DNA of 64,000 bases from Gemmatales bacterium (lineage in GTDB: Bacteria > Planctomycetota > Planctomycetia > Gemmatales > HRBIN36). This document shows positions 34,460 through 53,910 of this stretch, in pieces (position 1 is the stretch's first letter; each line of letters opens with the position of its first letter). The position numbers and the translations under genes were made by a program. The notes beneath the pieces were generated by a model. It made no database searches and was not told where the DNA came from. It worked only from the letters and a program-made list of their open reading frames with translations. The DNA lies in the NCBI GenBank assembly GCA_041640595.1, contig JBEPZY010000002.1, positions 242,984 through 306,983 on the forward strand. The letters are read 5' to 3'.

Positions 34460-35500
34460 TCAGGTCGGCTGGCGTAAGCGAGCCGTGGTGTGGGTCACGT
34501 ACCCGCGGATGCGAAACGCACAGCAGCAACAACGTCCGCGCTTGCAACCAGGAGCGGCTGGCGTAAACGAGCCGTGGTGTGGGTCACGTACCCGCGGATG
34601 CGAAACGCACCGCCGCAACAACGTCCGCGCTTGCAACCAGGAGCGGGGGGCGTAAGCCCCCCGTGGAAAACGAACGACACTGCACCGGCGTTCGTGAGCG
34701 CGCTGACGGCAGTCTCGCGCGACTTTACGGAAGCGTTCCTGCATGTACGTTTTTCAACCCCCACGGCGGGCTCACGCCCGCCGCTCTTGGCTGGATGTGC
34801 GTTTGTGCATCGCAAAAATCGTTTTTTCGCCGACAGACGTTCGCTATGCAACAAGAGCGGGGGGCGTAAGCCCCCCGTGGGTTCGCTGCCGCGACTGCAC
34901 CGGCGATCGGCGCACGCACCGTCGGCGGTCTGCCGTGAGTTAGTGGAAGCGCCGTTGCAAGTGCGATACTCACATCCACGGCGGGCTCACGCCCGCCGCT
35001 CTTGTCTCCGCACGTGACGAGTGTCCCCGGACGTCAGCGGTATCGGTGTTGCAAGTGCGTTTCCCGAACAGCACGGCGGGCTCACGCCCGCCGCTCTTGT
35101 GGATGTGCGTTCGTGCATCGCAAAAATCGTTTTTTCGCCGGCAAACGTTCGCACCGCAATACAAGAGCGGGGGGTGTTAGCCCCCCGTGTGAGACGAAAC
35201 GCCGTTGCAAATCGCAACCGCGCATCTCCGACGATATGCGTGCGTTCACCGGGAGCGGGCGGCGTCAGCCCCCCGTGGGTTCGCTGCCGCGACTGCACCA
35301 ACGCCTGTGAGCACACTGACGGCAGTCTCGCGCGACTTTACGGAAGCGTTCCTGCATGTACGCCTCCCTAACGCCCACGGCGGGCTCACGCCCGCCGCTC
35401 TTGGTTGTGTGTTCGCTCGTCGCTGAACAACATTCGCTTCTCACGGCACACCGATCGTACCAGCGAGCCACGGCGGGCTGACGCCCGCCGCTCTTGGGGA
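34460..35500. repeat. REP-like palindrome cluster 4 (inverted relative to clusters 1-3)
   Basis: CCACGGCGGGCTCACGCCCGCCGCTCTT units plus GAGCGGGGGGCGTAAGCCCCCCGTGG units. Confidence 0.9.
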
Positions 35501-42059: not shown

Positions 42060-42470
42060 GCGAACCGACACCCGCCGCTCTTGTTCGTCCGTTCGCTAGT
42101 CGCTGAACGAAGCGCGTTTCCCGCTGCACAACGTTCGTATCACGGAACCACGGCGGGCTGACGCCCGCCGCTCCTGTTCGTCCGTTCGCTAGTCGCTGAA
42201 CGAAGCGCGTTTCCCGCTGCACAACGTTCGTATCACCGAACCACGGCGGGCTGACGCCCGCCGCTCTTGGCTGGACGCACGCCTGCGCATTGCAAGTCGC
42301 GCATCTCGCACCGAACAAGCGTCGTGCACCAAGAGCGGCTGGCGTAAGCCAGCCGTGGCACCACATCCGCATGTGCGGCGCAAAACGTATTCAATCCGAA
42401 AAAGCCGGTGGCGTTGCAAGTGCGAATCCGAACCGCGGCGGGCTGACGCCCGCCGCTCTTGGTTGTGTGT
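42060..42470. repeat. REP-like palindrome cluster 5
   Basis: Inverted GGCGGG-type units with a near-exact tandem duplication of about 94 bp. Confidence 0.9.
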
Positions 42471-42830: not shown

Positions 42831-43736
42831 ATGGCCATCCTCATTTTGGGCAGTTATGACGATGAGCATGCCTGCCATGTTTACCAGTACCTGAAAGACC
42901 GTTGCCGGCAGGACGTGGAGCTGTTCGACAGTCGCTGGTTCCCAACGCACACGCAGATTAGTTTTGAACCGCAAGGCTGCCAGGGATGGTTACGCTTGCC
43001 TACGGGCCGTCGGTTGCGGTGGGAGGAAATTACTGCGGTTTACTGGCGCTGTTACTACGGCGTGGCCGTTCCATCTCTTCCCGATCCGGAGCAGCGACTG
43101 ATTGCCGAATCGGATAGCCAGGGGCTGATCGAGACACTGTTTCTGGAGCTGCCCGCTCGCTGGGTCAATGGCTGGCACGCTCAGCAACTGCATCGCACCA
43201 AACCGGTGCAATTGCAGCGTGTGGCGCGGCTGGGGTTAGCCATCCCCGCGACCGTCGTCACCAACGATGCCGAAACGGTAAAGCAATTCGTGGCCGAGCA
43301 TGGGCGGTGTATCTTCAAGCCCGTGCAGGGCGGTGCGCATGCCCGTTACGTCGAAAGCCGACACCTCACCGATGAGCATCTGTCGTTGCTCCGTGTTGCC
43401 CCGGTTACCATCCAGGAGGCTGTAGAAGGCACGAACATTCGCGTTTTTGTCGCCGGTCAGGAGGTGTATGCGTGCGAAATTCGCACGCCCTGTCTCGACT
43501 ACCGCGACGATCCCCAGCCACGCATTCTCGTTCATACACTGCCAGCGGAGGTGGTCGAGCAGTGCCGGACAGCGGCCAGGGAACTCGATTTGCTCTGGAC
43601 GGGGATGGACTTTCGCCTGACTGCGGACGGACGCTATGTGTTTTTAGAAGCGAATCCCAGCCCGATGTTTTTGGGTTTCGAAAAGGCCACGGGTCTGCCC
43701 CTGACCGAGGCCCTGGTGAAGCTGCTGACAGGATAA
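42831..43736 (+). CDS. ATP-grasp peptide ligase, PsnB/graspetide-synthetase-like
   Basis: D.HA N-terminus, AVYWR, WVN, KPVQL..V..LGL.IPAT..TND, IFKPVQGGA, IQE, IRVFV, LDYR, MDFR, FLEANPSPMF. Confidence 0.88.
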   Translation: MAILILGSYDDEHACHVYQYLKDRCRQDVELFDSRWFPTHTQISFEPQGCQGWLRLPTGRRLRWEEITAVYWRCYYGVAVPSLPDPEQRLIAESDSQGLIETLFLELPARWVNGWHAQQLHRTKPVQLQRVARLGLAIPATVVTNDAETVKQFVAEHGRCIFKPVQGGAHARYVESRHLTDEHLSLLRVAPVTIQEAVEGTNIRVFVAGQEVYACEIRTPCLDYRDDPQPRILVHTLPAEVVEQCRTAARELDLLWTGMDFRLTADGRYVFLEANPSPMFLGFEKATGLPLTEALVKLLTG

Positions 43737-43830: not shown

Positions 43831-44325
43831 TCACCGGACGCGTTCGCCTGCTTCAAACCATGCCATGGTGGGACGCTTGGGTGGGTTGCCTTCCTCGCCC
43901 AGTGCAAAGGTAGTTATCGGGCCTCTGGGTGGCTTTACGCCTTCTTCGTTCCGGACGTTGGTGGTCGGCGGGACGCGAGGCGGGTTGCCCTCCTCACCTA
44001 ACGCCAGTGTGGTTACCTGTCCTGGCGGTAATACGATCCGGGGCGGATTGCCTTCTTCTCCGAGCGCTTGCGTGGTAAATTGTCCCGGCGGCAGGTTTGG
44101 CCGCTGCGGATTTGCCGGCGGACGAGCAGTTCGCTCGGAAGCGATCGCACTGGCCATCGGCAGAATCAGCGTGCTGGCAACCGCAGCACACAGGCGGTCC
44201 AACCATTCCCGCCGAGAGAGCCGGTGCGAAGAATCGGTTGGCTCGTTCCTGGTCTGGGGCACAGGAGCGCCTACTGCTTCCGATTCGCACCCAGCGAGGT
44301 TCAGTCCGTCAAAGGGATGACGCAT
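43831..44325 (-). CDS. Multicore graspetide precursor (TTxxxxEE repeats) with a Tat-like signal
   Basis: RBS ggaggt; SRREWL plus hydrophobic stretch plus AxA; cores TTQALGEE, TTLALGEE, TTNVRNEE, TTFALGEE, PTMAWFEA; adjacent to the ATP-grasp ligase. Confidence 0.85.
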   Translation of the reverse strand: MRHPFDGLNLAGCESEAVGAPVPQTRNEPTDSSHRLSRREWLDRLCAAVASTLILPMASAIASERTARPPANPQRPNLPPGQFTTQALGEEGNPPRIVLPPGQVTTLALGEEGNPPRVPPTTNVRNEEGVKPPRGPITTFALGEEGNPPKRPTMAWFEAGERVR

Positions 44326-44872
44326 GGCACACCTCCGCGCTCGGCTTCAAATGTCCGAATTTATCCCGTCCCAGTATCGTCCTTATCAGCCAGTCCGCGA
44401 CAACAATTCTCGCCAGAGTTTGCCCACATCACCCCGACCGCCGCGTTGTCCCCATTTCTAAAGACGAATTTGCCCCGGAAAAAGTTTCAGCTTCAGTGCA
44501 TCCATCGCACCTGACAATGCCATCGGCTTCGGCACCATTCAAGGATTTAGTCCTTGGTTTACTCCTTAGTGCTAACGCAGTGGCACAGGAGCCTTGCGCG
44601 GCAAGTAGAGCCAAATAACGCTGTCCACCGCAAGCGCGAACGCTATGGGAGCTGCCCACCGCCAGAGCAACCACCTCGGCGAGCCTTGCGAGTACCTGCG
44701 GTTGTGCTTGACAACTGCGGGGAAGTTAACTATGGGCGGTCGGCCTTGTACGGGGCCGGTAAGCGGTGGAGGGGCAGCGCGAAAGGACACCAGCCCAATA
44801 CCAGGCCAGGTCGCGGATTCGCTTACCTGGTACAACGCCCAAGCGCCAGCACGGGGGGAGAAACTAATCCGT

Positions 44873-47233
44873 ATGACGCACTTGTGCCGTTCTTATTGGC
44901 TCTGGTCGGTGGCGGGGCTGTGTGGCCTGGCGACCTGGTTATGCCTGGCACAGTCGCCGGAGTTGATCGTCGCCGAGGTGCGTATCGAAGGCGCACGCCG
45001 TCAGCCCGAACAAGCCATCCTCAATATGCTGAAAACCCGTCCAGGCCGCGTTTATAACCCGCTGGAAATTCAGGAAGATGTCCGCAAACTGATGGAAACC
45101 AACTGGTTCGCCGATGTTCGCCCGGCCGAAGCACGCACTCCCCAGGGAGTCGTGGTCATCTTCCGTGTCGTCGAACGCCCGACCATCAAGGAAATCATTT
45201 ACGACGGCGCCAAGCATCTCAGCCGGAAAGAGCTGGAAGAAATTACCGGATTGCGACCCGGCGGGCCGATGGACCCGGCTCTGAACTGGCGGGCCCGCGA
45301 GGCCATCGAACGCAAATACAAAGAAAAAGGTCGGTTGCTGGCGCGCGTGGAACTTGTCGAAGGAACCAAGTCCGACGACCTCCGCGTGGTCTTCCGCATT
45401 ACCGAAGGGCCGGTCATTCGTATCCGCAGCCTCAGCTTTGAAGGCAACAACTTCGTCAGCGCTGCCCGGCTGAAAACGCAGATTGATTCGCGGGCCACCT
45501 TGCTGGGATTTTTCGGCGAATACGATCCGGAACGCCTGGATAACGACGTGTTGAAGTTGCTGAAATACTACCACACCTTCGGCTTTTTCGAGGCCCGCAT
45601 CGGTCGCAAGGTTTTCTGGCAGCCCGGCAGTGATCGCGTGGATGTCGTTTTCGTGATTGAAGAAGGGCCGCGATCCTATATCGCCGGCACCGAGGTTGCC
45701 GGGAATCGCATCCTCGACCAGAGCATGCTCCTCGCCCATGACAAAACCGAAAAAGGCAAGCCCTACAACGCCAATATCGTCCAGGCCAGCGCTCGAGAAA
45801 TGCGTGATGAATACTGGAAACGCGGCTATGTCTTCGCGGATGTCCAGCCGATCCTCAAATACAGCAGCGAGCCGGGAGTTACGACTGTTGTTTACCAGGT
45901 CAATGAAGGCCCATTGCCGCAGACCGGCGAGCCATATCGAGTCGGCGAAATCCGCATCGTCGGTAACACGGTCACCCAGGATCGCGTCATCCGGCGGGAA
46001 CTTGTCGGCCTGGAACCGGGCCAGGTGTTTGACCGAACGGCTATCGCTCTCAGCGAACGCAATCTCTCGCGACTGCGCATCTTCAGGGAAGACCCGATTC
46101 AGGGAATTCGCCCCACCATCACCATCCTCAACGAAACCGATCCCTCGCCGTATAAGGATCTGCTGGTGGAAGTGCAGGAGGATCGCACCGGTTCGCTGTT
46201 AGTAGGAGCGGCGTTCAGCACTGATTACGGTGCCAACCTGAGCATTATCCTCAACGAGCGAAACTTCGACATTTTTGGCTTTCCGCGTTTGACAAGCTGG
46301 GATGATTTCTGGACGGATTTGACCAGCGGTCGCGCCTTCCGCGGGGCTGGCCAGGAATTGAGAATCGAGGCCATTCCAGGTACCGAAATCAGCCGCTACA
46401 CCATTACCTGGCGTGAACCCCGGTTATTCGATAGCCCCTACAGTTTAGGCGTGGGTGGCTATTACTACACGCGGATTTTCGATGAATACACGGAACAGCG
46501 TACTGGTGGGAGGATCACGCTGGGCCGACGGTTGACCCCGGAGTGGAGCTTCAACGTCGGTTTTCGCATCGAGGATGTGAAAGTGCGGAGTATTCCACCG
46601 ACCGCGCCGCCGGATTTCTTCGAGGTGGCCGGGCATAATTTCGTTTTAGCCCCGCGTATCGCTCTGGTGCGGGACACGCGCGATTCGATCATCCGCGCCA
46701 CCACGGGCAATTTCCTGGAAATCGCTTACGAGCAGGGATTGGGCGATTTCACCTATCCGATTGTGACCATCGAGGATAGCCAGTACTGGACGATTTACGA
46801 ACGGCCCGACGGTTCCGGTCGGCACGTGCTGGTGTTGCGGGGGATTGTCGGTTGGGCCGGCGACGACACGCCGCTTTTCGATCGTTTCTACGCTGGCGGT
46901 TTCCGCACGCTGCGTGGTTTCCGATTCCGGGGCGTCGGACCGCGAGTTAACGGTTTCAACGTTGGCGGCACGTTTGAAGCGCTCGGCAGCCTCGAATACC
47001 AGGTTCCCTTGCTGGCCAATGATATGATTTACGCCATCGCCTTTACCGATTTCGGTACCGTGGACAGCGATGTAACGCTGGAAAATTTCCGCGTCTCCGC
47101 CGGTTTCGGTCTGCGGATCAATGTGCCGATGTTAGGCCCGGCCCCGATCGCACTCGATTGGGGCTTCCCGATCGTCAAGGAAGATGGCGATCGCCGGCGC
47201 ACCTTCTTCTTCGGCATCGCTTTCTCGCGGTGA
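44873..47233 (+). CDS. bamA: Outer membrane protein assembly factor (BamA/Omp85 family)
   Basis: POTRA-like repeats (GNTVTQDRVIRREL), RFYAGG..TLRGF, FTDFG, SAGFGLR, terminal aromatic beta-strand. Confidence 0.88.
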   Translation: MTHLCRSYWLWSVAGLCGLATWLCLAQSPELIVAEVRIEGARRQPEQAILNMLKTRPGRVYNPLEIQEDVRKLMETNWFADVRPAEARTPQGVVVIFRVVERPTIKEIIYDGAKHLSRKELEEITGLRPGGPMDPALNWRAREAIERKYKEKGRLLARVELVEGTKSDDLRVVFRITEGPVIRIRSLSFEGNNFVSAARLKTQIDSRATLLGFFGEYDPERLDNDVLKLLKYYHTFGFFEARIGRKVFWQPGSDRVDVVFVIEEGPRSYIAGTEVAGNRILDQSMLLAHDKTEKGKPYNANIVQASAREMRDEYWKRGYVFADVQPILKYSSEPGVTTVVYQVNEGPLPQTGEPYRVGEIRIVGNTVTQDRVIRRELVGLEPGQVFDRTAIALSERNLSRLRIFREDPIQGIRPTITILNETDPSPYKDLLVEVQEDRTGSLLVGAAFSTDYGANLSIILNERNFDIFGFPRLTSWDDFWTDLTSGRAFRGAGQELRIEAIPGTEISRYTITWREPRLFDSPYSLGVGGYYYTRIFDEYTEQRTGGRITLGRRLTPEWSFNVGFRIEDVKVRSIPPTAPPDFFEVAGHNFVLAPRIALVRDTRDSIIRATTGNFLEIAYEQGLGDFTYPIVTIEDSQYWTIYERPDGSGRHVLVLRGIVGWAGDDTPLFDRFYAGGFRTLRGFRFRGVGPRVNGFNVGGTFEALGSLEYQVPLLANDMIYAIAFTDFGTVDSDVTLENFRVSAGFGLRINVPMLGPAPIALDWGFPIVKEDGDRRRTFFFGIAFSR

Positions 47234-47464
47234 AATCGTCTGCTCGCCGGCGAAGACGGGCGGCTGCTGTGTGAAGGACACGGTGTTGGCGGCTGTTTGG
47301 AGGACATGGTGACGGTTCAGCGAGCGCGGTAGCAGCCTCGACTCTTGCGTGTCAACGGCTGCTCGGAGGACACGGTGATTTTCGCTTTGCCGCTTCGTTC
47401 TGAAACAGGCGTTTTGTACAGCGCAAAAGTCGCATTTTCATCCAAAACCACCATCGTGCAATGC

Positions 47465-48695
47465 AGCCAGGAGCGGCGGGCGTCAGCCCGCCGTGGGTGT
47501 TTGGCAAACGCACTTGCAACACCGATACCGCTCACGACCGGGGACACTCGTCACGTGCGGAGACAAGAGCGGCGGGCGTCAGCCCGCCGTGGGTATCGGT
47601 ATCGCACTTGCAAAGGCGCTTCCACAAAGTCGCAGGAGACCGCCGGCAGTTTGTGTGCCGATCGCCGGCGCTGTCGCGCTCAGCGGTGCAGCAAAGGGGC
47701 GACTGTTGTACCAGCGCCGGCTTTCCGTGATTTTCAGTCGTTGTGCTCCCGTGCAGGGTAGCCACGGGGGGCTAACGCCCCCCGCTCTTGGTTGTACATG
47801 CGTTTGTGCATCGCAAAAGTCGCCATTTCACCGGCACACGTTCGCGCCTGCAACCAGGAGCGGCGGGCGTGAGCCCGCCGTGGGTGTGGGAAAGATGTTC
47901 ACGCAGACAAAAGCGCGATTGTTCGGCAGACCCCCGACGGTGCGTGTGCCGATGGCCGTTGCATTCGCGTCCAGGCTTACACGGGGGGCTAACGCCCCCC
48001 GCTCTTGTGTTGCAGTGCGAAGGTCCGCCGGCGAAAAACGATTTTTGCGATGCACGAACGCACGTCCACAAGAGCGGCGGGCGTGAGCCCGCCGTGGGTG
48101 GCGGAAACGCACTTGCAACACCGATACCGCTCACGTCCGGGGACACTCGTCACGTGCGGACACAAGAGCGGCGGGCGTCAGCCCGCCGTGGGCGTGGGTA
48201 ACGCACTTGCAGGAACGGTTCCGCAAAGTCGCAGGAGGCCGCCGGTAGTGTCCTCACGAACTTCGGTGCAGTGGCGTCCAGCGGCGCCGCGAAGGGCCGA
48301 CTGTTGTACCAACGCCGGCTTTCCGTGATTTTCAGTCGTTGTGCTCCCGTGCAGGGTAGCCACGGGGGGCTAACGCCCCCCCGCTCTTGGTTGTACATGC
48401 GTTTGTGCATCGCGAAAGTCGTCATTTCACCGGCACGCGTTCGCGCCTGCAACCAGGAGCGGCGGGCGTCAGCCCGCCGTGGGTGAGAGTATCGCACTTG
48501 CACAGGCGCTTTAGCAAAGTCACGCGAGGTCGCCGGCAGTGCGCTCACGAACGCCGGTGCAGGCGCGTTAGCGAACCACGGGGGGCTTACGCCCCCCGCT
48601 CTTGGTTGCACGCACGCATATCGTCGGAGATGGGCGGTTGCGATTTGCAACGGCGTTTTGTTTCACACGGGGGGCTGACGCCCCCGCTCTTGACG
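47465..48695. repeat. REP-like palindrome cluster 6
   Basis: About 11 palindromic units with shared linker modules. Confidence 0.9.
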
Positions 48696-51832: not shown

Positions 51833-52690
51833 ATGCAATTGTGCAAATTTCGCTCGTCAGCCGGCGAGGTACGCGTCGGCTTGATTCGGCAGGGGCAAGT
51901 CTATCCGCTTGGCCTCACCGATACTCCCGACCGCCCGGCTCTCAGCAGCGTCCTGCATTCGGCCAACCCGGCAGAACAGGCTTGGCAGCTGGCGAACCAC
52001 GCTGCGCCGGTCGGCACATTGTCCGAACTGGCACTCCTTCCGCCCCTCGATCGTCAGGAAGTCTGGGCCGCCGGGGTTACTTACAAACGCAGCGAGGAAG
52101 CTCGCAAACGCGAGTCGCAAGGGGCCGCTATTTTCTACGACATGGTGTATCGTGCTGAGCGACCGGAGCTGTTTTTCAAAGCCCCGGCCTGTCGCGTGGT
52201 TGGTCCCGGCCAGCCTGTGCGGATTCGCCGCGATTCTCGCTGGAGTGTTCCCGAACCGGAACTTGCCCTCGTCCTCGATCCGCAGTTACGCGTTGTCGGC
52301 TACACCATCGGCAACGATATGAGCGCCCGCGACATCGAAGGCGAAAATCCGCTCTACCTTCCGCAGGCCAAAATCTACGACGGCAGTTGTGCCCTGGGCC
52401 CGGTGATTACACTCAGCGACGCCATGCCTGCGTTCGGCGCAGTGACCATTCGCCTGGTGATCGAGCGCAACGGGCAAACGGTTTTCGACGGCCAGACCTC
52501 GCTGGCGGCGATGCATCGCAGTGTTACCGAGCTGGCGCACTGGCTGGGTCGGGAACTTTCTTTCCCCGACGGCGTCATTCTGTTGACCGGCACCGGGATC
52601 GTTCCGCCCGATGACTTCAGTCTGCAATCCGGCGATGTCATTCACATAGACATTACCGGCATCGGTCGGCTCACCAACCCGGTCGCTTGA
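51833..52690 (+). CDS. Fumarylacetoacetate hydrolase family protein (XylX-like 2-keto-3-deoxypentonate dehydratase)
   Basis: VWAAGVTY..S..AR, RPELFFK, PEPEL, GNDMSARDIEGENPLYLPQAK, LTGTG. Confidence 0.88.
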   Translation: MQLCKFRSSAGEVRVGLIRQGQVYPLGLTDTPDRPALSSVLHSANPAEQAWQLANHAAPVGTLSELALLPPLDRQEVWAAGVTYKRSEEARKRESQGAAIFYDMVYRAERPELFFKAPACRVVGPGQPVRIRRDSRWSVPEPELALVLDPQLRVVGYTIGNDMSARDIEGENPLYLPQAKIYDGSCALGPVITLSDAMPAFGAVTIRLVIERNGQTVFDGQTSLAAMHRSVTELAHWLGRELSFPDGVILLTGTGIVPPDDFSLQSGDVIHIDITGIGRLTNPVA

Positions 52691-52789
52691 ATCTCCCCCG
52701 CCCGCCGGTGAGTTGACTCCCCATCCGACGCCGGTAACCCGAACCCACATCGCGCCCAGAATCGTTCGCGGACACTCGTCTCGTGCCGA

Positions 52790-53910
52790 AAACAAGAGCG
52801 GCGGGCGTCAGCCCACCGTGGCTCGGTCATACGATCGCTGTGCCGTGAGAAGCGAATGTTGTTCAGTGACGAGCGAACACACAACCAAGAGCGGCGGGCG
52901 TGAGCCCGCCGTGGGCGTGGGTAACGCACCTGCAAAGGCGCTTCCGCAAAGTCGCCGGAGACTGCCGTCGGTGTGCCCACAGACGTTGGTGCAGTAGCGC
53001 CAGCGAGCCCACGGGGGGCTTACGCCCCCCGCTCTTGTTGCATAGCGAACGCTTGCCGGCGAAAAAACGATTTTTGCGATGCACAAACGCACGTCCGGGT
53101 CAGGAGCGGCGGGGGTGAGCCCGCCGTGGGCGTGGGTAACGCACTTGCAAAGGCGCTTCCGCAAAGTCCCGGGAGGCCGCCGGCAGTGTGCCCACGAATG
53201 CCGGTGCAGTCGCGGTAATGAACCACAGGGGGCTGACTCTTTTACCGGCGCCGGCTTTCCGTGGCCCCCAGTGGTTGCATTCGCGTGTGGTGTTCGCACG
53301 GGGGGCTAACGCCCCCCGCTCTTGTATTGCTGCGCGAACGCTTGCCGGCGAAAAAACGATTTTTGCGATGCACAAACGCACGCTCGCCCAGGAGCGGCGG
53401 GCGTGAGCCCGCCGTGGCTCGGTCATACGATCGGTGTGCCGTGAGAAGCGAATGTTCAGCGACGAGCGAACACACAGCCAAGAGCGGCGGGCGTGAGCCC
53501 GCCGTGGTGTTCGGGAAACGCGCTTGCAGGAACGCTGACTTAAAGTCGCGGGAGACTGCCGTCGGTGTGCTTACGAACGCCGTTGCATTCGCGTCCAGCG
53601 GTGCCGCAAAGGGCCGACACTGGTACCAGCGCCGGCTTTGCGTGATTTTCAGTCGTTGTCTTCGCGTGCAGGGTTCCCACGGGGGCTAACGCCCCCCGCT
53701 CTTGTATTGCGTTGCGAACGTCTTTCGGCGAAAAAACGATTTTTGCGATGCACAAACGCACGCTCACAGGAGCGGCGAGCGTGAGCCCGCCGTGGTGTGC
53801 GAGTATCGCAGTGGCAACGGAGCATGTCTTGGTCGAAAGTGCACGTGAGTAACGGGTGTGCGCCGGCTGATGTCTGCGTTGAGAGCGGTGGGCGTCAGCG
53901 GCGGTGGTTT
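52790..53910. repeat. REP-like palindrome cluster 7, between convergent genes
   Basis: Multiple palindromic units with shared linkers. Confidence 0.9.

Follow-up and report, generated by a model that had tools for sequence, protein, structure and literature searches.

Group 2 graspetides are defined by the motif TTxxxxEE in the accessible part of PMC11626197. PMC8939145 and PMC11626197, in the parts available, leave open how most graspetides are freed of their leaders and exported. NHLM-type transporters normally co-occur with group 2 graspetides (PMC13097080, accessible text), and the PCAT RcpC cleaves a group 2 precursor at GG (PMC11626197, same part).

The family considered here has already been catalogued as cluster434 of Branch_Plesiocin, group 2 (Makarova et al. 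2022, supplements of PMC8939145). Its 16 entries comprise two Singulisphaera assemblies, one entry from Cellvibrio and 13 cyanobacterial entries, one of the latter a fragment. Outside the planctomycetes, 13 entries have an N-terminus, and these start with HPF followed by an acidic stretch; the leader ends in a double glycine in 10 of these 13, and a reading of the sequences found a twin arginine (RR) with a hydrophobic h-region in none of them (0/13). The cluster434 table labels Singulisphaera ‘GG’, while the accessible portion of the main text of PMC8939145 mentions neither Tat nor planctomycetes.

We analyzed a 64,000-nucleotide stretch of a Gemmatales genome (the window), which carries a precursor of this family, P0001, and its ligase, P0002. 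P0001 shares with cluster434 the TTxAxGEEG cores, the HPF N-terminus, a ligase of ~300 aa and the terminal TxAWFExG unit, in which several of the non-planctomycete precursors also end. On the other hand, the 14 of 16 cluster434 entries from cyanobacteria and Cellvibrio have an acidic, mostly GG leader, whereas the leader of P0001 has RR, an h-region and an AxA site (RR/h/AxA). We consider it probable that the two genes form a group 2 graspetide cassette, with a leader that joins a ligase-docking HPF module to a Tat module and with export by Tat and signal peptidase I (SPase I).

The precursor, its ligase and the predicted docking motif

The features of the locus are as follows (positions in the window).

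42831..43736, plus strand: ATP-grasp graspetide ligase P0002, 301 aa, convergent with the precursor gene and without a signal peptide
43831..44325, minus strand: group 2 graspetide precursor P0001, 164 aa (from translation, homologs and the ligase always present alongside in the class search)
44293..44325, minus strand: residues 1-11 with the HPF motif, predicted to dock on the ligase (invariant H, P and F; modelled interface; common to cyanobacterial cluster434 leaders)
44221..44292, minus strand: residues 12-35, long n-region, a variable acidic/polar linker (from comparison with L041)
44200..44217, minus strand: residues 37-42, twin-arginine motif S-R-R-E-W-L (Z-R-R-x-Φ-Φ; consensus in the accessible part of PMC13673990)
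44140..44193, minus strand: h-region and c-region, where SPase I is predicted to cut after A62 (hydropathy; small-x-A in relatives)
43846..44076, minus strand: core region, four TTxxxxEE units and the terminal unit
44053-44076, 43990-44013 and 43891-43914, minus strand: three TTxALGEE cores
43942-43965, minus strand: divergent TTxxxxEE core
43846-43869, minus strand: terminal TxAWFExG unit, found again in cyanobacterial cluster434 precursors

The ribosome-binding site GGAGGT precedes the ATG of P0001, and a GGAG-like site lies before the start in most of 12 adjacent related precursors. A later start codon, which would omit HPF, was rejected, since M-x(x)-HPF starts were found at 12 of 12 adjacent related loci. 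HPFDG occupies residues 3-7 (44305-44319, minus strand). A proline-rich spacer separates the signal from the cores, in which the TTxxxxEE motif of group 2 graspetides occurs four times; the T and E columns are conserved among precursor homologs. A Pfam search of P0001 gave no match.

The closest solved structure to P0002 was 7drm (E 2e-37), which we take to be PsnB; against TIGR04187 the ligase scored 155 bits, under the cut-off of 350. Residues K124, K163, Q195, D-Y-R 223-225, D260, E273 and N275 were kept in all 25 aligned ligases, the middle residue of D-Y-R being Y or F. The ligase of locus L004 is 57.5% identical to P0002; the Singulisphaera precursor of that locus is listed within cluster434 and the Singulisphaera ligase is catalogued in Branch_Plesiocin (supplements of PMC8939145). 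For the assignment to group 2 we looked for a linked plesiocin-branch ATP-grasp ligase with intact catalytic residues, and P0002 is such a ligase. No second close copy of it was found in the source genome.

The earlier note had proposed PFDGL as the ligase dock and had suggested a check of the conservation of RR and PFD. Over 130 rows the conserved N-terminal motif was instead H-P-F-x-G-(I/L/V), with H and P at 100%, F at 99% and G at 77%, but D at only 46% and L at 14%. RR was conserved in ligase-anchored relatives (see below).

The ligase dimer was modelled together with precursor residues 1-35, a fragment that leaves the RR/h segment outside, and the result supports docking at this end of the leader. 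The ipSAE was 0.66, while three controls reached 0.01 at best; the mark that the model passed is reached by 116 of 157 solved pairs and 2 of 215 mismatched pairs and applies here roughly. The runs shared at least 48% of contacts, with a partner pLDDT of at least 42. Modelled contacts to the ligase involved residues 1-11 only, and H3-P4-F5 was flanked by residues 162-192 from one subunit and by residues 83-95 from the second. The model therefore supports binding of residues 1-11 to the ATP-grasp dimer. Since the structure of a PsnB-precursor complex has reportedly been solved already, the pass may mirror likeness to that complex.

In the ligase tree, the ligases of HPF precursors formed one clade (support 95/97), including one metagenome row whose precursor lies off the contig. 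FIEEL-leader ligases formed another clade, while L005, L006 and L071, which stand beside precursors with RR and without HPF, made a separate long branch; the root was set at the midpoint, and the non-HPF ligases sit on a very long branch. HPF-clade ligases conserve the predicted pocket residues, which are different or missing elsewhere: FIEEL-clade ligases differ at these residues, and L005, L006 and L071 are without the 83-91 stretch.

The Tat-like signal

The earlier note had read SRREWL at residues 37-42, a hydrophobic run and ASA/AIA sites in the leader, and translation with coordinates confirmed each of them. The uncharged run covers residues 45-63 (44137-44193, minus strand; best 11-residue hydropathy 2.41, in the h-region) and ends in ASA (58-60, 44146-44154) and AIA (60-62, 44140-44148), both on the minus strand. 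As cleavage sites the two fared differently: the closest homologs keep A62 of AIA (as S/A-x-A), whereas A60 of ASA is replaced by S in P0003-P0008, for which reason we preferred A62 as the cut site.

P0001 has several features of class I Tat substrates, namely a conserved Z-R-R-x-Φ-Φ at the n/h border, an h-region and an AxA-like SPase I site. The profile of the relatives, S/T/G/D-R-R-x-F/W/V-L/F, agrees with the Z-R-R-x-Φ-Φ of PMC13673990 (accessible part). The RR is at position 38 in P0001 and ranges over positions 15-49 in relatives, so that HPF-to-RR spacing is free and the linker varies while both motifs stay fixed. Compared with L041, for example, the amino acid changed in 11 of 25 linker codons (residues 11-35), in 0 of 10 at residues 1-10 and in 0 of 8 at residues 36-43.

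We scored leaders by a Tat-like rule of our own (RR-x-Φ-Φ, a hydrophobic run and small-x-A/G). It was passed by P0001 and 46 of 54 homologs. In the same genome 111 of 2530 predicted N-termini (4.4%) and 24 of 1951 internal windows (1.2%) passed, and when the first 70 residues were shuffled, 34 of 5000 versions did so, which places the signal above chance. The invariance of RR in alignments A1 and A4 is circular (rows were picked for RR) and was left unused as evidence. Among HPF-type homologs 125 of 131 retain RR-x-Φ-Φ, in a sample biased by queries that contained RR.

Profile searches were less favorable. PF10518 and TIGR01409 gave no match to P0001, whose sole Tat-related HMM match was the hydrogenase-2 small-subunit N-terminus (E 0.076); even among homologs selected for RR, TIGR01409 matched 6 of 40 and PF10518 1 of 40 at E<=0.1. 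The n-region also departs from class I substrates: it is described as net positive for Tat (PMC13673990, accessible part), whereas in the P0001 family it is long and net-acidic, with a net charge ahead of RR of zero or below in 111 of 125 relatives (the two arginines excluded).

The weak HMM scores would fit recognition of the signal by Sec, or by Sec and Tat alike, with RR dispensable and with modification partial or rings small enough for passage. In a few members (P0301, P0192, P0202, P0303) RR is missing and the signal is Sec-like or lipoprotein-like, and Sec export of RiPPs is proven for bufferins (PMC11626156, accessible part). We nevertheless give this reading little credence: RR-x-Φ-Φ was present in each of the 14 ligase-anchored genomes as well as in the 125 of 131 HPF proteins, more than 30 polar or acidic residues precede the h-region, and the ligase is cytoplasmic and ATP-dependent. 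The same core repeats were seen behind other signals (P0193, P0192, P0202, P0303, P0301), such as RR with a lipobox-like Cys, HPF with a lipobox-like Cys, and Sec-like ones.

The c-region bears on cleavage. In P0001 it is less tidy than in the family, with a variable A60 and without Q after A62, and uncleaved Tat signals exist (PMC13673990, accessible part); the signal could then be a class III one, used by Tat and left in place, with the cyclised repeats anchored in the inner membrane and facing the periplasm. This seems to us very unlikely, given that 123 of 125 relatives have a small-x-A site (with Q as the next residue in 55), that 90 of the 125 have K/R inside the c-region window, and that the h-region is short and Ala/Gly-rich. 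Cleavage by SPase I remains our preferred reading.

Distribution, separable modules and export machinery

To avoid circularity, we sampled 401 Planctomycetia genomes by ligase alone, blind to the leader. A ligase at E<=1e-60 was present in 14 of them, the source genome included, and all 14 (which are kin, not independent samples) carry a precursor with M-x(x)-HPF...RR-x-Φ-Φ, an h-region and AxA. The precursor adjoins the ligase in 13 of the 14 and lies ~87 kb away in G765; in G146 the adjacent precursor is frameshifted behind the signal, and in G759 an ORF is inserted between the two genes. A precursor profile recovered the same 14 genomes and G726, where a distant ligase lies beside the precursor.

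The displaced pair in G765 and the frameshift in G146 could suit a precursor that is exported largely unmodified, with targeting faster than the ligase and the repeats forming a plain exported low-complexity protein; ring formation in P0001 is itself predicted from sequence. We regard this as extremely improbable in view of the co-occurrence of ligase and precursor in all 14 genomes (and of the adjoining distant ligase in G726), the intact catalytic residues and the conserved T and E columns of the cores.

The family is sizeable: at E<=0.001 the precursor profile matched 1250 representatives at 50% identity, of whatever leader type, and there were 1289 ligase homologs at E<=1e-30. A metagenome scan with a single ligase as query gave 4 loci only, and a plasmid scan distant ligases only. 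Signs of mobility or decay (a frameshifted precursor, a transposase-like ORF between the genes, a split cassette) were seen at L052:9250-9900, at L004:4674-5858 and in L046 versus L082; G536 has two precursors and one ligase. In close relatives the precursor gene is covered by contigs of RNA libraries (four runs, DNA possibly present); X1 extends over the whole stretch, and we draw no conclusion on expression from this cover.

The two leader modules are separable. RR/h/AxA occurs without HPF in 15 homologs (16 with the doubtful P0026), of which those with a named source are from Pirellulaceae or unplaced planctomycetes, and HPF occurs without RR in cyanobacteria. Since the modules part across clades, HPF tracks the ligase type and RR/h/AxA does not, as it accompanies two ligase lineages that are distant from each other and differ in their upstream motif. 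The bipartite leader of the earlier note is supported by this and by the other computational tests. The motif (I/L/V)xGG precedes RR in 1 of 125 relatives and is absent from P0001. Apparently, to judge from these leaders, planctomycetes swapped a GG/PCAT module for a Tat module. In the Pirellulaceae-type cassette (L005, L006, L071) an amphipathic segment replaces HPF before the RR signal, the C-terminus reads W..F/W-R-R-W and the ligase is short and very divergent. TTxAxGEE repeats were also found fused to large or unrelated N-terminal domains in P0253, P0282, P0297, P0266, P0221, P0279, P0044 and P0056, presumably Calx-beta-like, tyrosinase-like and Nif11-like (by eye).

This separability also bears on whether RR-x-F-L and the hydrophobic helix make up a second ligase- or membrane-binding element, with a product that stays cytoplasmic or leaves by a remote transporter. 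Short helices such as PFFARFL do mediate graspetide leader-ligase binding, the RR segment was outside the docked fragment, and remote proteases and transporters are believed to be common. Conversely, RR/h/AxA is paired with both ligase lineages, same-branch cyanobacterial ligases pair with RR-less HPF leaders, and the n/h/c architecture is complete, which makes such an element highly improbable in our view.

The source genome (G000, 95% complete) encodes TatA, TatC and SPase I, and a C39 search of it gave no match. TatC was present in 19 of 19 genomes tested, so its presence discriminates nothing. C39 matches at E<1e-30 were found in 4 of 6 genomes with non-Tat leaders (FIEEL/FVEEL-type or cut) versus 0 of 13 HPF genomes, 7 of which had weak matches. 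The two strong C39 frames that we checked are full PCATs with Walker A and LSGGQ; the longest C39 frame checked from HPF genomes does not show this pair.

Among 69 ORFs around 13 related ligases there was no ABC exporter or shared protease. The G110 locus has an MMPL transporter directly behind the ligase, not common to the other loci, and three related loci have nearby unrelated peptidases, none of them shared. The earlier note had taken Tat export to explain a missing transporter and protease: the lack of C39 and of a shared protease was upheld, but four FIEEL-type loci (72 ORFs, by inspection) have no adjacent exporter either, so the missing neighbor is not specific to Tat-type loci.

Several further observations concern the surroundings. 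A PqqD-like or membrane peptidase-like ORF adjoins the non-Tat ligase loci L066:5882-7063 and L069:6729-8873 (by eye), possibly a further maturation route. A BamA/Omp85 gene (44645-47233, plus strand) is divergent from the precursor gene and absent beside the other 13 loci. Palindromic intergenic repeats are abundant (42117-42467; also about 34460-35430, 47300-48650 and 52640-53700); in RNA runs the contig depth summed over them is very high, probably owing to many genomic copies.

At least 18 relatives have a two-domain insert of ~165 aa, tandem ferredoxin-like, directly behind the signal and before the cores (for example, L051:7237-8229, L053:6821-7765, L054:1-834, L056:6637-8142, L086 and P0181-P0189). 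A folded domain at this place would fit the arrangement of exported proteins. PF05922 (Inhibitor_I9) matched the insert weakly in three proteins (E 0.002-0.009, under the cut-off). Structure comparison gave the PCSK9 prodomain (Z 6.7, rmsd 3.7, 85 aligned), EpiP (Z 6.2; 2.9, 63) and pro-subtilisin E (Z 6.0; 2.6, 60), scores tied with those of unrelated folds and all under 8, and Foldseek returned nothing for the insert at E<=0.001. In L055:2480-3595 and L082 other inserts that look folded (by eye helical, TPR- or HEAT-like) separate the cores or follow them.

Proposed route and comparison with known systems

Under the preferred reading, a cytoplasmic ATP-grasp dimer would bind the N-terminal HPF motif, as modelled, and, as in plesiocin-type systems, would close Thr-Glu ester rings in the TTxxxxEE repeats. 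Since the ligase is ATP-dependent and thus cytoplasmic, the rings would be closed before export. The RR/h/AxA segment would direct the cyclised precursor to TatC, Tat would carry it into the periplasm, and SPase I would cut after A62, shedding HPF and signal together. The product would be a multi-ring periplasmic protein of ~102 aa with a spacer of ~21 residues before the first core, its cores not freed singly. Delivery by Tat ends at the periplasm; outer-membrane passage lies beyond the proposal.

The Tat module would take the place of a dedicated C39 peptidase-ABC exporter, because it stands where the cyanobacterial and Cellvibrio HPF members have their GG leader. Tat transports folded cargo and would therefore suit a cyclised precursor, as macrocycles would fit Sec poorly. 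Macrocycles are called poor Sec substrates in the accessible part of PMC11626156. By analogy with the activity of the plesiocin family, and because of the I9-like domains in relatives, the product would most likely act as an inhibitor of serine proteases, either in the periplasm or after secretion.

A wider proposal, which we advance tentatively and rate at somewhat less than an even chance, is a native class of Tat-exported RiPPs. The macrocyclase would hold HPF until the rings close and then hand the precursor to TatC; export modules would be swappable (GG/PCAT, Tat/SPase I, Tat-lipoprotein, Sec), with Tat gained at least twice in planctomycetes; and cyclised cores joined to subtilase-propeptide-like or other folded domains would be exported as multi-headed periplasmic protease inhibitors. 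A literature search, with Lee 2020, Ramesh et al. 2021 and the PsnB structure paper outside its scope, gave no native Tat-exported graspetide or RiPP. The family and one planctomycete member were already catalogued, as ‘GG’ and with no mention of Tat.

Among described systems, plesiocin (PsnA2/PsnB; 7drm) and Rheinheimera RcpA/RcpB/RcpC likewise combine a multicore TTxxxxEE precursor with a single ATP-grasp ligase. The plesiocin leader is of the LFIEDL type. A clustered ABC transporter cleaves RcpA at GG through its C39 domain (PMC11626197, accessible part), whereas P0001 has HPF and RR/h/AxA, and no C39.

Bufferins (PMC11626156) and DAG-RiPP lipoproteins (PMC13056109), as far as these texts are accessible, resemble the proposed route in that housekeeping export and a signal peptidase supplant a dedicated transporter and protease. 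They use Sec/SPI or SPII signals and MNIO chemistry, and bufferins can be modified without their signal (PMC11626156), whereas P0001 has a predicted macrocyclase docking motif upstream of its Tat motif; ‘Tat’ does not occur in the accessible main text of either paper. If the proposal is true, RiPP export by housekeeping pathways would widen from Sec to Tat, a route suited to macrocycles, and the family would supply a blueprint from nature for the secretion of cyclised peptides, or of peptide-domain fusions, that needs no dedicated transporter.

The leader of P0001 may resemble those Tat signals of redox enzymes that are bound by maturation chaperones. Class I Tat substrates (PMC13673990, accessible part) share Z-R-R-x-Φ-Φ, the h-region and the AxA site with P0001, whose n-region differs in holding a predicted enzyme-docking motif and whose cargo is a predicted side-chain-cyclised repeat protein. 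The P0001 family would offer a two-gene answer to leader loss and export in graspetides, for which its GG-type sisters are natural controls.
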